DNA from: Candidatus Fermentibacteraceae bacterium
GTDB lineage: Bacteria > Fermentibacterota > Fermentibacteria > Fermentibacterales > JCC-6
Direction of reading: 5' to 3'
Length of the DNA stretch: 64,000 nt
NCBI GenBank assembly: GCA_016936235.1
Contig: JAFGPK010000002.1
Coordinates: 20,672-84,671 of the forward strand
The notes under the pieces were generated by a model. It saw only the letters and a program-made list of their open reading frames with translations, did no database searches and had not been told where the DNA came from. Positions 12,275-16,909 of the stretch are shown here, piece by piece. Both the position numbers and the translations under genes were made by a program. Numbering within the stretch: position 1 is the first letter of the stretch; each line of letters begins with the position of its first letter.

Positions 12275-13585
12275 ATGAAAATGCTGCTGAACACGATGAC
12301 GACCCTGATGATCATATCGGTGTCCGTTGCCGGGTACTTCTGTCCAGGCAGGTCGGCGCGGGAGGACTACCAGGAGGTGGTCAACAGGGTGGCGGAGATG
12401 GTCTGGGACAGCAAGGTGACGCAGATGGCCTATGCACACGGCCTGGACGTGGTGAACGTGACCTGGGAGGACACCGGCAGGTACTACGGCTCCTGCTGGG
12501 GACCCAACATCTCTGACATGACCATACAGGTGCACAGCTACCAGAACGGTGCGGAACATCCAACTCTAACCTGCATGCCGGTGATACGATACCCAAACTT
12601 CCACGACCTTTCTGCGGACATGGACCCGGACAACTTCTACCTTCTGGTGGGGAACGAGATAGGTGAAGACCTGGCCCCGGTCTCGCTGACCGATTTCGTG
12701 GACAACATACGGTACTACCTACACGATCCCGAATCCTGGGACAGTGACGAACACAGCCTTCTTGCAGAGCGGGACAGCGTAGTTCTGGTCAGCGCACAGG
12801 CAGTCTTCCTGCCCATCCCGGGAGACGGCAACGCGACTTTCAACCCGGTGCTCTACAACTACCAGTCCTACGAGGGGGACCCCGCAGTGCTGACGATACT
12901 CGTTACCCGTGAAGGAACCAGCGTCACGGTGATAGACAACGCCAGGGACGCCGTCCCCGGCTCGTGGAGCTGGGGCCAGAGACTCTTCTTCAACGACAAC
13001 GGAGAAAGGGCAAGCCTCACGGGACAGAGGATCTCCGATTTCAGAGTCGAGTACGCCCAGCAGGGCGGCGACCCCTCCGAGATCTCCGAGGAGAGCAACC
13101 TGAACATGGTTCTCCTCATCCAGATACCCCTGAAGCAGAGGAATCCGCAGAGCACATGGTTCGACGACGTCGAGTGCTGCCAGGATGCCTGCATGACAAT
13201 GGGCGCTGCGGGTGAGTCTTCATCCAGGACCTCCGACGTGGAGGCAGCCGTGATAGGCCATGGCGAGCTCGAAGGACCCTTCACCGAAATAGACGGACTC
13301 GAGATAGAGAGGGACCCCAACTTCCCCATACGCGTAACCGTACAGTTCTACAAGGCCACTTCCAACGGGGTAGCCTCCCAGGAGGACATAGACACGATAG
13401 CCGAGGAGATAGACAAGGTCTACAGCGAGGGTTCCTACGTCGGTTCACTTGTTGTTCCGGACCCCGGTGTCTACAGACCCACCGACTGGGACAGGGCCTC
13501 GGTCCCCAGGAGACTCAACAGGTACTGGCGCTACGTGCGCAACGGTTACCTGGGATGGTTAGGCAGACCCGACCTGATGAACTGA
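12275..13585 (+). CDS. Hypothetical protein of unknown function, probably exported
   Basis: GGGAGG RBS, 436-aa ORF with hydrophobic N-terminus and distinctive motifs VTWEDTGRYYGSCWGPNISDMTIQV and RDPNFPIRVTVQFYKATSNG. Confidence 0.85.
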   Translation: MKMLLNTMTTLMIISVSVAGYFCPGRSAREDYQEVVNRVAEMVWDSKVTQMAYAHGLDVVNVTWEDTGRYYGSCWGPNISDMTIQVHSYQNGAEHPTLTCMPVIRYPNFHDLSADMDPDNFYLLVGNEIGEDLAPVSLTDFVDNIRYYLHDPESWDSDEHSLLAERDSVVLVSAQAVFLPIPGDGNATFNPVLYNYQSYEGDPAVLTILVTREGTSVTVIDNARDAVPGSWSWGQRLFFNDNGERASLTGQRISDFRVEYAQQGGDPSEISEESNLNMVLLIQIPLKQRNPQSTWFDDVECCQDACMTMGAAGESSSRTSDVEAAVIGHGELEGPFTEIDGLEIERDPNFPIRVTVQFYKATSNGVASQEDIDTIAEEIDKVYSEGSYVGSLVVPDPGVYRPTDWDRASVPRRLNRYWRYVRNGYLGWLGRPDLMN

Positions 13586-13608
13586 TCGTTTGAGAATAAT
13601 ACCAGTCT

Positions 13609-13636: not shown

Positions 13637-13714
13637 TACATGAGACTTGCGTTTCTGGAAAAGAGCAACATATTCATCCAAATCCTTTTAACTGAATCGA
13701 AGGGAGCGTACGAT

Positions 13715-14875
13715 ATGAGATCATGTCTGCTTCTGCTTCTACTTGTCTCAACGGTGGCATTCTCCCAGACCTTCAGCTTCGCGTCCCCCTATAATCTGCA
13801 GTCCGGCGGCACAACCATTGACGTCGGGTACTACGCGGCGCCCTGCGTGGTGGATTGGGACGGGGATACTCTGAAGGACCTCATACTGGGCCAGTTCTCA
13901 TCCGGTTACATACGGTTCTACAAAAACGAGGGAAGCAATGACGCCCCCGTCTTCAACTCGTTCTCCTACCTGCAGGCCGACGGTGTGAACATCACCATGG
14001 CCTCTGGTTGATGCACCGGTTCCACTAATCCACAGGTTGTGGATTACGACGGCGACGGAATGCTGGACATCATAGTAGGCGACCGTAACGGTTTCATACA
14101 TTACTACAGGAGGACCTCCGAGAATCCCGTCACCCTGACGAAGGAGCCGGACCTCGTCTGCGGCGGCGTGACCATAGACGTGGGTTACAACGCCGCGCCG
14201 GTGTGCGTGGACTGGGACGAGGACGGCGAGAGGGACCTTCTCGTGGGGACCCAGGGCGGCGAAGTGAGGCTCTACCACAACGACACCATCGACACCGACC
14301 CCGTGTACAACACCTACACATTCATTGAGAGTTCGGGAAGCGCCATCAATCACTACAGGAACTGTCCCCAGGTGCTGGACATGAACCAGGACGGGAAGAA
14401 GGATCTTCTCTGCGGGGCAAATGATTACAGGATATACTACTACGAAAACACCGGGACCAATGCAGAGCCGGTCTTCTCCGGTTCCGAGAGCATCATCAAC
14501 ACCGGAAGCTCCGGCGCCCGTTTCTGGGTGAACGACTGGAACGAGGACGGTCTGCTGGACGTACTGGCGAGCAACTTCAATGGTTTCGTCCAGGTATACA
14601 TACAGCAGAGTACGAGCATCACCGAAGAAGGGGGCATCGGGCTCCAAAGGAGGCTGACGCCGGACCTGAACCCCTTCAGCTCCTCCGTTACCATTACTTC
14701 CTCCGGATTCGGACAGGGAACCCTGACCCTGTACGACATGTCCGGAAGGGCCCTGCTTACGGAACCCTTCTGCGGGTCGTTCCTCCTGAGCGGTTCCGGT
14801 CTTGCAGGAGGCTGTTACATAGTCGAGGTGAGGGACGCCGAAGGGACCGCCGCTCTCAAGCTCATGAAGCTCTAG
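13715..14875 (+). CDS. Secreted FG-GAP repeat protein with T9SS-type C-terminal sorting domain; candidate selenoprotein (in-frame TGA at 14009-14011)
   Basis: ORFs 13640-14011 and 14039-14875 are in the same frame and separated only by one TGA. The gene has a signal peptide MRSCLLLLLLVSTVAFS, five DxDxDGxxD repeats, a C-terminal domain NPFSSSVTI..LYDMSGR..GCYIVEV, and a SECIS-like hairpin after the TGA. Confidence 0.8.
14012..14046 (+). promoter_or_regulatory. Candidate bacterial SECIS element
   Basis: Perfect 9-bp stem TAATCCACA (14026-14034) / TGTGGATTA (14038-14046) with a GGT loop starting 23 nt after the TGA. The CAGGTTG apex resembles the CAGGUCUG apex of the E. coli fdhF SECIS. Confidence 0.72.
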
Positions 14876-14888
14876 CTACAAAAGGAAC

Positions 14889-14929
14889 AAATGTCCCATT
14901 CCGGTGCCAGGCACCGGAATGGGACATTT
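14889..14929. repeat. 20-bp perfect palindrome with 1-nt centre, core GGTGCCAGGCACC (REP-like; may double as terminator)
   Basis: AAATGTCCCATTCCGGTGCC-A-GGCACCGGAATGGGACATTT, 13 bp after the stop of the FG-GAP gene. Confidence 0.9.
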
Positions 14930-15002: not shown

Positions 15003-15791
15003 ATGGTTGAAAAGACATCTGAGCGCAGGCACTGGGACGACTTCTGGCGTCGTGACCGAGACCTGGACGAGATATACGACAACGACGGGCGCATTCCCGA
15101 GGAACTGGGCAAGCGCATGGACGTGGCCGGCATGACCATCATGGAAGTCGGGGCCGCAACCGCAAGGGACAGCGTCACCCTGGCTTCCCGGGGTGCCGCG
15201 GTCGTGGCTCTGGACTACTCCCACGAGGCCCTCCGGCTGGCCCGGGAAGCAGCTGAAAGAGCCGGAGTGAAGCTGCTTCTGGTTTGCGGCGACGCACTTG
15301 CCCTGCCCTTCAGGGAGTGCACTTTCCACCTTGTCTTCCACCAGGGTGTCCTCGAGCATTTTCACCGACCCCTTCCCTTCCTGGAGGAGAACGCAAGGGT
15401 AGCCAGACCCGGCGGCACGGTACTGGTGGATGTGCCCCAGACACTGCATGTCTACACCCTCATGAAGAAACTTCTCATAGCCCTTGACGCATGGTTCGCC
15501 GGCTGGGAGACCCAGTATACAGTTGGAAGCCTGGGCAGGCTCCTGAAGAAGGCCGGTCTGGAACCCCGGAGCAGCTATGGAAGGTTCTTCTCACCCTCGC
15601 TTTTCTACAGGGTTCTGAGGGAGGCCCTGATGAAACTTGGAATTAAGCTCCCGCTGAGACCCGTGATCCTGCCCCCCTTCCACAGATTCAGAGCAAGGAT
15701 CCGGAAAGCTGCGGAGGCATCCCCTCTGGGACCCGGTCTGGGATGCGTGATAGGGGTCTTGGCCGAAAAACCGGGGAAGAACCTGACATGA
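15003..15791 (+). CDS. Class I SAM-dependent methyltransferase
   Basis: IMEVGAATA (motif I variant), VALDYS, CGDALALPF..TFHLV, VLEHF. Confidence 0.88.
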   Translation: MVEKTSERRHWDDFWRRDRDLDEIYDNDGRIPEELGKRMDVAGMTIMEVGAATARDSVTLASRGAAVVALDYSHEALRLAREAAERAGVKLLLVCGDALALPFRECTFHLVFHQGVLEHFHRPLPFLEENARVARPGGTVLVDVPQTLHVYTLMKKLLIALDAWFAGWETQYTVGSLGRLLKKAGLEPRSSYGRFFSPSLFYRVLREALMKLGIKLPLRPVILPPFHRFRARIRKAAEASPLGPGLGCVIGVLAEKPGKNLT

Positions 15792-16909
15792 GAATTCTGG
15801 CACTTAACTGGAGGGACCCCAGGAACCCGGAAGCCGGTGGAGCGGAGGTACACCTCCATGAGATCCTCAAACGTTCTGCGGCGTCCGGCCATAGGGTGAC
15901 CCAGATATCACACGCCGTGACCGGACTTCCTGCTGAGGAATGGATCGACGGAGTGCGCATCCTACGGCACGGGAGGAGAAACACCTTCAATTTCACGCTG
16001 AAGAGGTTCGCCCTATCCCTGGACATTGGTTCGAACTTCGACCTGGTGATCGAGGACCTCTGCAAGGTGCCGTTCTACAGCCCGAGGTGGTCTCCCGCGC
16101 CGGTGCTCACCGTGGTCCCGCACCTTTTCGGGACAACGGCCTTCCGCGAAGTGGCGTTCCCACTGGCACTCTATGTGAACTTCATGGAGTCCTTCATACC
16201 CAGGGCCTACAGGGGCTCCCGCTTCGTTGCCATCTCCGATTCCACCAAGCGGGACCTTGTCAGAAGGGGAATATCCGATGGGGAGATCTCCGTGATTCCC
16301 TGCGGGATAGACACGGCATTCTACACTCCCGGTCCTCCTGATCCCGATCCGGCCACTTTCCTCTATGTCGGTAGACTGAAGAAGTACAAAGGGATCCAAA
16401 TGATAATAACGGCGCTGGGACTTCTCCGGCAGACAGGGACGGACTGCAGTCTGGTGGTCCTTGGATCCGGCGATTACGAAGGGGAGCTGAGAAAGCTCAC
16501 AGCGAGGCTCGGTCTGGAGGGTTCCGTCAGCTTCGAGGGCTTCGTGGCCCAGGAGCGGAAGCTCCACTGGCTCCGGCGCGCCTGGGCAGCTGTGTTCCCG
16601 TCGGAGAAGGAGGGGTGGGGTCTGACCGTGATAGAGGCTAATGCCTGCGGTACCCCGGTAATAGCAAGCGACAGCGACGGCCTTCGCGACTCCGTCAGGA
16701 ACGGCGAGACCGGCATCCTGGTGCCCCACGGCGACCTTGAAGCCCTGGCGAGCGAGATGGGTAAGCTGTCCGCGGATCCGGCTCGTAGATCGCTGCTGGG
16801 GAATAACGGGATAAAGTGGGCCGGGAGCTTCGACTGGGATATCACCGCCGAAAGGATGCTGCGCGTAATGGAGGAAACTGCCTCCAGCCGGAGTCACGTC
16901 CCCCGGTAG
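15788..16909 (+). CDS. Glycosyltransferase family 4
   Basis: GGAEVHL, LYVGRLKKYKG, PSEKEGWGLTVIEANACGTPVIASD. The start overlaps the methyltransferase stop (ATGA). Confidence 0.92.
   Translation: MRILALNWRDPRNPEAGGAEVHLHEILKRSAASGHRVTQISHAVTGLPAEEWIDGVRILRHGRRNTFNFTLKRFALSLDIGSNFDLVIEDLCKVPFYSPRWSPAPVLTVVPHLFGTTAFREVAFPLALYVNFMESFIPRAYRGSRFVAISDSTKRDLVRRGISDGEISVIPCGIDTAFYTPGPPDPDPATFLYVGRLKKYKGIQMIITALGLLRQTGTDCSLVVLGSGDYEGELRKLTARLGLEGSVSFEGFVAQERKLHWLRRAWAAVFPSEKEGWGLTVIEANACGTPVIASDSDGLRDSVRNGETGILVPHGDLEALASEMGKLSADPARRSLLGNNGIKWAGSFDWDITAERMLRVMEETASSRSHVPR

Follow-up and report, generated by a model that had tools for sequence, protein, structure and literature searches.

A candidate selenocysteine gene family encoding predicted exported FG-GAP propellers with a vicinal Sec-Cys turn in Fermentibacterota and other bacterial phyla

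Bacterial selenocysteine (Sec, U) recoding, as exemplified by Escherichia coli fdhF, combines an in-frame UGA codon, a small-loop hairpin with a leading G located within the open reading frame (ORF) and referred to as the bacterial selenocysteine insertion sequence (bSECIS), and the genes selA, selB, selC and selD. To our knowledge, the bacterial selenoproteins known so far are almost all redox enzymes of the cytoplasm or periplasm, for the most part with a thioredoxin-like fold, and we know of no FG-GAP structure that contains selenocysteine. We describe here a gene at positions 13715-14875 of a 64,000-nucleotide stretch of DNA from Candidatus Fermentibacteraceae bacterium (GenBank assembly GCA_016936235.1, contig JAFGPK010000002.1, positions 20,672 to 84,671 of the forward strand; hereafter the window), which shares all of these features with the prototype and which, judged by comparison of sequences, is very probably a genuine selenocysteine gene from a large, multi-phylum family of exported FG-GAP propellers. 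It departs from the prototype in that the host protein does not belong to any oxidoreductase family known among selenoproteins, and in that the hairpin, AAUCCACAGGUUGUGGAUU, is family-specific and encodes N-P-Q-V-V-D.

A second group of relevant systems comprises selenoproteins with vicinal Sec and Cys residues. Such pairs can form an eight-membered selenenylsulfide ring or bind soft metals, and the corresponding centre of thioredoxin reductase is G-C-U-G. CU or UC motifs are also found in metal-related bacterial selenoproteins, namely SaoL, HgcA, MbdU and the CopZ-like GxUC proteins (PMC13188914, Table 1). The protein studied here has in common with all of these an adjacent, Gly-flanked selenolate and thiolate, yet differs from thioredoxin reductase in the reversed order of the dyad and its internal rather than C-terminal position, and from vicinal-pair selenoproteins in general in that the dyad lies on a predicted exported propeller without a flavin or thioredoxin-fold partner; NCBIfam models give no sequence homology to the vicinal Cys-Sec selenoproteins. 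The sole trace of a comparable propeller that we found in the literature is Table S9 of Kim et al. (PLoS One, 2016; PMC4807772), where FG-GAP/ASPIC-UnbV selenoprotein candidates are listed, each annotated as two genes split at an in-frame UGA, most with a bSECISearch hit and with Gly at the site in the closest non-Sec match. Split FG-GAP genes are common to both sets, and the Gly replacement resembles the G, W, E, A or D seen here; in contrast to the present family, however, these candidates carry ASPIC/UnbV (PF07593), which is not among the Pfam matches of our protein, and they appear as a table listing without family analysis, whereas the genes described below encode a short five-repeat form with a type IX secretion system (T9SS) tail in Fermentibacterota and Stahlbacteria. 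Compared by description only, the earlier candidates probably form a longer, related branch within the same superfamily; nine PF07593 loci read upstream through the TGA gave no interpretable Sec site. The 119 prokaryotic selenoprotein families and subfamilies listed in a May 2026 review (PMC13188914) include none described as FG-GAP, VCBS or propeller, no such family is mentioned in the BSepDB paper or in the deep-Sep paper with its supplements, and a full-text literature search returned nothing relevant on FG-GAP, VCBS, beta-propeller or Fermentibacter* selenoproteins. A search of NCBIfam (June 2026) with the protein retrieved TIGR04183 only, and no selenoprotein model. The proposal of the initial annotation, which was made from the sequence of the window alone, that this is an unrecognised type of selenoprotein therefore stands with respect to the 119-family catalogue and NCBIfam; FG-GAP/ASPIC-UnbV candidates were tabulated in 2016.

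The recoding signal and the residues around it are laid out as follows:

13715-14875, + strand: complete putative selenoprotein gene, 386 codons and a TAG stop, a single open frame if TGA is read as U
14009-14011, + strand: UGA codon, putative selenocysteine, residue 99 (column conservation, Sec machinery in the genome)
14012-14014, + strand: Cys100, vicinal partner of the putative Sec (near-constant codon, cross-phylum invariant column)
14026-14046, + strand: hairpin of the selenocysteine insertion sequence (SECIS) type inside the coding sequence, stem 14026-14034 / 14038-14046, loop GGU 14035-14037 (fold energy, pairing, frozen codons)

Gene calling with translation table 11 cuts the locus into 13640-14011 (with ATG 13715 as the likely start) and 14039-14875. 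As first proposed from the sequence, these two ORFs are in frame and are split by TGA 14009-14011 only, which is the sole internal stop of the frame; the confirmed 386-residue read-through product runs ..ITMASG-U-CTGSTNPQVVDYDGDGMLDIIVG.., or over a longer stretch ...ITMASG-U-CTGSTNPQVVDYDGDG... Neither half is complete, as seen directly in the sequence: the signal peptide is N-terminal, the sorting domain is C-terminal, and the C-terminal part has no ribosome-binding site (RBS). No terminator-like site was found at the locus between the two gene halves.

The distribution of this TGA was followed by a six-frame search of 61 related genomes and by an out-of-phylum scan with one genome per species. 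The protein was matched in 50 of the 61 related genomes, with more than 100 matches at 88% down to about 32% identity, and over all the phyla covered the homologues fall to 27-35% identity. Full-length orthologues, at 88-27% identity, have one TGA each. Nearly every match spanning the site contains exactly one TGA, and about 90 distinct homologues, out of the more than 100 found, were read with the same TGA in the same alignment column. In the first set of loci the TGA aligned with residue 99 in 32 of 32 cases, within ...G-U-C-T-G-[AS]-T-N-P-Q-V-V-D..., and among 40 further paralogues, 39 of them alignable, it occupied the same column in 36; the three exceptions have GAA-ACC (E-T; L133), D-C (L150) and TGT-TGA (L167, G006:C29), the last of which thus bears a C-U dyad and a spacer two codons longer. 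Across Fermentibacterota and Stahlbacteria, TGA is present in all 75 distinct motif-bearing sequences and the Cys100 codon is TGC or TGT in 73 of them. Loci of other phyla in which the site recurs number 17, and G-U-C-[ILM]-G-x-x-P-Q-[LV]-V-D is the motif seen in Stahlbacteria, a Kiritimatiellae metagenome-assembled genome (MAG), Gemmataceae, Isosphaeraceae, other Planctomycetota and Sedimentisphaerales. A 28-sequence cross-phylum alignment leaves G98, U99, C100, G102 and P106 invariant near the TGA, the other invariant columns being mostly calcium-loop aspartates and glycines of the five repeats. The recurrence of TGA and hairpin at the same column in 32 of 32, 36 of 39 and 17 out-of-phylum loci places the feature far beyond chance. 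Where the initial annotation had allowed for homologues with variable residues at this position, or for further lesions indicative of a pseudogene, TGA occupies the column across at least four phyla, no further lesions are seen, and one TGA per gene is the rule.

The family is also expanded within genomes. The host genome carries two more copies (contigs C114 and C77), and up to nine TGA-bearing copies are found per genome (G032 has 9, G014 has 8 and G029 has 7), many arranged in tandem, with tandem family pairs at, for example, G028:C21, G032:C19, G024:C60, G034:C1, G030:C3 and G032:C96; a single Planctomycetota MAG (CBDFNI01) contains at least seven. One Fermentibacteria locus (L066, CAWJQI010000001.1) seemed to lack the site but carries this TGA and the hairpin just downstream of a frameshift, which is probably an assembly indel in what is itself probably a long-read assembly. 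Finally, the three loci with a variant dyad, L167 as well as L162 and L046 discussed below, all keep the hairpin.

The hairpin was confirmed at 14026-14046 as initially described, with a perfect stem TAATCCACA/TGTGGATTA that closes a GGT loop and starts 14 nt past the TGA, the loop itself being 23 nt away. Folded alone, the 9-bp stem has an energy of -9.7 kcal/mol (z = -3.9), with 1 of 200 shuffles as stable, while wider folds of 71 nt and 52 nt around the UGA are no more stable than shuffles (z = -0.44 and -0.95, respectively). The consensus bSECIS model specifies a loop of 3-9 nt, a stem of 4-16 bp, G in the first two loop positions, a spacing of 16-37 nt and a minimum free energy of at most -7.5 kcal/mol (PMC13188914), and with its GGU loop, 9-bp stem, 23-nt spacing and energy of -9.7 kcal/mol the hairpin lies within this model in every respect. 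In homologues the hairpin is retained with compensatory changes, in agreement with what had been anticipated for a functional element: over an alignment of 85 distinct sequences 92.8% of cells pair in the stem, as opposed to 22-44% for controls with the 3' arm shifted by 1-3 nt, and three of eight pairs have changed on both sides (AU 71, GC 8 and GU 3; AU 50 and GC 13; AU 74, GU 6 and GC 4). Some of these compensations alter the protein, as in CCA to CCG with GTG to GCG (V to A) and AAT to AGT (N to S) with GAT to GAC. Five core pairs are invariant or compensated, whereas the stem tolerates loss of the A-U pair that closes the loop and of the second pair counted from its base.

Codon usage within the stem, counted in 75 distinct genes and compared with the remainder of those genes, is similarly constrained: Asn is encoded by AAT in 68 of 68 cases (background 33%), Pro by CCA in 68 of 75 (background 12%), with CCG in the remainder and neither CCC nor CCT, Gln by CAG in 75 of 75 (background 85%) and Val by GTG in 73 of 73 (background 29%), while all synonyms are used at codons +2 to +5, in the spacer between UGA and stem. 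In Planctomycete genes the spacer ahead of the stem is one codon shorter, and a 6-bp GUCCAC/GUGGAC stem with an AGUUG loop lies about 19-20 nt from the UGA. Frozen synonymous sites, stem covariation and the retention of a stem in planctomycetes together mean that the RNA itself is under selection, beyond the protein-level conservation of N-P-Q-V-V-D. The codons flanking the UGA are likewise biased, with GGT for the Gly directly 5' of it in 67 of 72 genes (background 22%) and TGC directly 3' of it in 69 of 73, and this GGT-UGA-TGC bias may reflect a need of the flanking context, either for inserting Sec or for avoiding termination. A covariance model of the UGA and hairpin (R1) retrieved only the three paralogues from the 2.68-Mb host genome, at 66-75 bits with the next match at 16 bits, a result that speaks to specificity and not to discovery since those three belonged to the training set. 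An Rfam scan of 13900-14150 returned no RNA family, as expected given that bacterial SECIS elements are family-specific.

The machinery for decoding is present, as the initial annotation had proposed to verify. The host assembly (2.68 Mb, 94% complete) encodes selA (510.7 bits) with an adjoining selB (318.9 bits), selD (311.4 bits) and a tRNA-SeC(UCA). Outside the window, selD itself has one in-frame TGA (L001, C40:87082-88008), and its product is, as read from its sequence, a putative Sec-containing selenophosphate synthetase. Among Fermentibacterota, selA was found in 43 of 47 genomes, the remaining four being 61-80% complete, and it was found in 10 of 10 out-of-phylum genomes with the TGA form of the gene; conversely, it was not found in the genome of L083, the Phycisphaerales homologue with Cys in this place (...PIT-C-W...). 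A recoded genome in which TGA is a sense codon was considered and rejected: TGA serves as a normal stop more often than any other codon, at the end of 1114 of the 1707 stop-to-stop ORFs with 300 codons or more, which shows that the code is not reassigned, and 11 genes of the family use TGA as their own terminal stop.

A small number of full-length relatives have sense codons at the site, with E-T (P0040, which is L133), A-W and E-F (P0057, P0059 and P0060), W-C (P0070 and P0117, both distant and reading G-W-C) or G-C (P0110) in place of the dyad. In L133 (G007:C35:13768-15321), which stands in tandem with a TGA-bearing copy, GAA-ACC replaces TGA-TGC and the hairpin AATCCACAGGTTGTGGATT is intact; as Sec and Cys are both gone while the hairpin sequence persists, this copy would fit a recent joint loss of the two, and hence a two-residue functional unit. 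The W-C forms allow two histories: either Sec decoding was lost and the cheapest repair followed, or the UGA is normally read by tRNA-Trp.

Beyond the recoding signal, the locus contains the elements of a complete gene for a predicted secreted protein:

13700-13706, + strand: Shine-Dalgarno-like AAGGGAG, 8 nt 5' of the ATG (read directly in the sequence)
13715-13768, + strand: predicted N-terminal signal peptide MRSCLLLLLLVSTVAFSQ (hydrophobic N-terminus, read from sequence alone; kept in kind among orthologues)
13772-14614, + strand: five FG-GAP/VCBS repeats, each with D-x-[DN]-x-D-G-x-x-D (Pfam, PDB profile search, Foldseek)
14669-14869, + strand: T9SS type A C-terminal sorting domain, residues 319-385 (TIGR04183, 1.2e-5, 25.2 bits, cut-off 23)
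14889-14929, + strand: intrinsic terminator after the TAG stop, 19-bp stem followed by a T-rich tail, closing a monocistronic unit

The calcium-loop motifs of the five repeats fall at residues 47-55, 110-118, 166-174, 222-230 and 274-282, and Pfam identifies FG-GAP_3 (PF13517; 3.8e-19, 69.5 bits, cut-off 26.9) and FG-GAP (PF01839; 2e-7, 31.2 bits, cut-off 22.1). A profile of the family compared with the PDB aligns these loops with calcium-binding blades in integrin alpha-4, alpha-V and alpha-IIb, and it also retrieves CRTAC1 and a secreted esterase that bears FG-GAP repeats. AlphaFold2 modelling with the 28-sequence alignment yielded a propeller followed by a beta-sandwich tail as one unit (predicted local distance difference test, pLDDT, 90.9; predicted template modelling score, pTM, 0.73), with the predicted signal peptide as a helix at residues 2-13 of low pLDDT. 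Foldseek relates the model to the propellers of the BBSome, CRTAC1, integrin alpha and TcB with probability 1.0 and a template modelling (TM) score of about 0.37, a low score taken only for naming the fold class; its value would fit a smaller propeller with five repeats instead of seven or eight. The protein thus shares with integrin alpha, CRTAC1 and VCBS propellers the repeat motif, the D-x-D-x-D-G calcium loops and the profile and Foldseek matches, and differs from the integrin type in having five repeats as opposed to seven or eight and G-U-C-x-G in place of one presumed 4-1 loop.

The TGA lies, as originally noted, in the lead-in to FG-GAP repeat 2, where the equivalent place in the other repeats reads G-Y-Y-A-A-P or G-Y-N-A-A-P of the FG...GAP signature. 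The model that the initial annotation had called for places the dyad at a tight turn before the innermost strand of blade 2: according to DSSP, G98 and T101 are bridged and U99-C100 form a two-residue turn ahead of strand 104-109, the first strand of that blade. By homology to integrin alpha subunits, this turn would be the 4-1 loop near the central channel, on the side where ligands or substrates usually bind. Within the dyad segment only G-U-C-x-G and P106 are conserved across phyla, and the lack of conservation in the rest of the segment argues for the Sec-Cys dyad itself, and not a larger catalytic constellation, as the putative functional centre. At the C-terminal end, the homologues carry a precomputed PF18962 match, and the genome encodes a SprA-type T9SS translocon homologue (315 bits summed); Planctomycete members (L073-L082 and L087) have no T9SS tail and end in a charged, probably helical stretch with a terminal HGFVWVFLR-like motif. 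Three additional cysteines, C44 (13844-13846), C164 (14204-14206) and C215 (14357-14359), sit on or beside the innermost strands of blades 1, 3 and 4 in the contexts APC, PVC and NCP, which are seen in Fermentibacterota and not conserved in Planctomycetota.

Taken together, these observations strongly support a model where the in-ORF hairpin would recruit SelB and Sec-tRNA(Sec) and UGA-99 would be decoded as Sec. From the domains present, the signal peptide would then carry the 386-residue product across the inner membrane, and T9SS, as the presence of SprA also suggests, would deliver it to the cell surface through the C-terminal sorting domain, where G-U-C-x-G would hold a selenolate and a thiolate next to each other on the tip of a tight turn in the five-repeat propeller. 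We hold it highly probable that the best explanation of the locus is this whole of Sec insertion, export, propeller fold and Sec-Cys functional centre. As to chemistry, there is about an even chance that the dyad acts as a reversible selenenylsulfide exchanging with extracellular disulfide, polysulfide or thiol substrates; more tentatively, it may serve as a soft-metal or metalloid binding site, and a chemistry other than these two seems rather unlikely. With up to nine TGA-bearing copies per genome, many in tandem, the paralogue expansion suggests that binding specificity diversified around a constant reactive dyad.

Several points weigh against this interpretation. The support for Sec in the protein is exclusively comparative, and the position of the dyad on a ligand-binding face rests on homology to integrin topology. 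Homologues with Cys in place of Sec are a classical hallmark of selenoprotein families, yet here this form is nearly absent, the single example being the Phycisphaerales homologue L083, which is unusual and constitutes the main soft spot; the other non-Sec relatives, a small minority, have W, E, A, D or G at the site, and as the Trp codon TGG is one mutation from TGA, near-cognate read-through stays compatible with the sequence. The partner Cys is missing in L162 (G029:C16), which reads U-A, and in L046 (G012:C139), which reads C-U-N with Cys before Sec. No conserved redox or metal-handling partner gene was found near the locus or near the homologues examined. Furthermore, binomial p-values for the codon counts treat related sequences as independent and thereby overstate significance; the contrast with neighbouring codons is independent of them. 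It is against this background that a recoding event other than Sec insertion has to be considered, in which the hairpin would slow or perturb termination and a near-cognate tRNA (Trp, Cys or Arg) would read the UGA, yielding a full-length propeller of the ordinary kind. The G-W-C found in the distant, full-length homologues P0070 and P0117 and the rarity of true Cys-for-Sec forms are what one would expect in such a case, but if Trp were wanted TGG would be fixed, whereas about 90 distinct genes from several phyla retain TGA, and the hairpin resembles SelB-binding bSECIS elements in its small loop starting with G and in its spacing. Moreover, TGA forms are accompanied by selA in every out-of-phylum genome tested while the Cys form occurs without it, and the adjoining Cys is co-conserved with the TGA and lost jointly with Sec in the E-T copy L133, all of which makes non-Sec recoding very improbable.

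The same comparisons bear on the two ways in which the UGA could be a stop after all. If it terminated translation, a 98-residue secreted fragment and a separately initiated 278-residue C-terminal protein would result, as the database annotation of the 278-residue fragment as a protein and a GTG at 14039 might suggest; that GTG, however, lies inside the hairpin, the C-terminal part has neither signal peptide nor RBS, blade 2 spans the TGA, the protein is modelled with confidence only as one chain, more than 100 genes have both parts in a single frame and invariably exactly one TGA, and the non-Sec relatives are single full-length ORFs, so that we regard two products as highly improbable. A recent pseudogene, or a sequencing or assembly error, has a negligible probability: one in-frame stop does resemble a fresh nonsense mutation when a single genome is viewed, but an identical TGA in independent assemblies from dozens of species and several phyla, at the same column across loci, effectively refutes it, as do the lack of other lesions, purifying selection on both sides of the TGA and motifs kept in all five repeats.

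In the interpretation as a selenoprotein family, the mechanism of Sec insertion would be conventional, and the unconventional features would be its setting in such a protein, where that protein is located, how many copies there are and how rare Cys forms are. We lean somewhat towards a joint reading of these peculiarities, namely an unpublished, Sec-dominant, extracytoplasmic family with a non-thioredoxin fold in at least four phyla, whose new cell-surface selenium centre would be irreplaceable by Cys; such irreplaceability would explain both the near absence of Cys homologues and why the family was missed by pipelines built on Cys/Sec pairs. If correct, a surface-exported propeller with an invariant Sec-Cys turn would represent a new fold and a new cellular location for selenium, and these proteins would dominate among the selenoproteins of Fermentibacterota and make up a notable share of those in planctomycetes. 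The near-absent Cys homologues point to a blind spot of discovery based on Cys/Sec pairs, and the family offers a concrete test case for the irreplaceability of Sec. Its members are also mis-annotated throughout, and the family is in effect absent from catalogues: the sequences in public protein collections are almost exclusively C-terminal fragments of some 270-300 residues, nearly all of 225-300 residues among the 120 listed of 791 matches, under the names 'hypothetical protein' or 'T9SS type A sorting domain-containing protein', the fragment of the present gene being 278 residues long. Hundreds of database entries are in this respect truncated fragments, an annotation error.

The genomic neighbourhood is conserved only among members of the genus. 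Directly upstream, an ORF of 436 residues without a Pfam match (12275-13585, + strand) has its own terminator-like hairpin near 13600 and is found beside the orthologue only within the genus, at 84-98% identity. Downstream lie a gene for an S-adenosylmethionine (SAM)-dependent methyltransferase (15003-15791, + strand) and one for a GT4 glycosyltransferase (15743-16909, + strand), which overlap by 49 nt and whose synteny is likewise limited to the genus. The neighbours of the Planctomycete copies are secreted WD40-repeat proteins or further paralogues.

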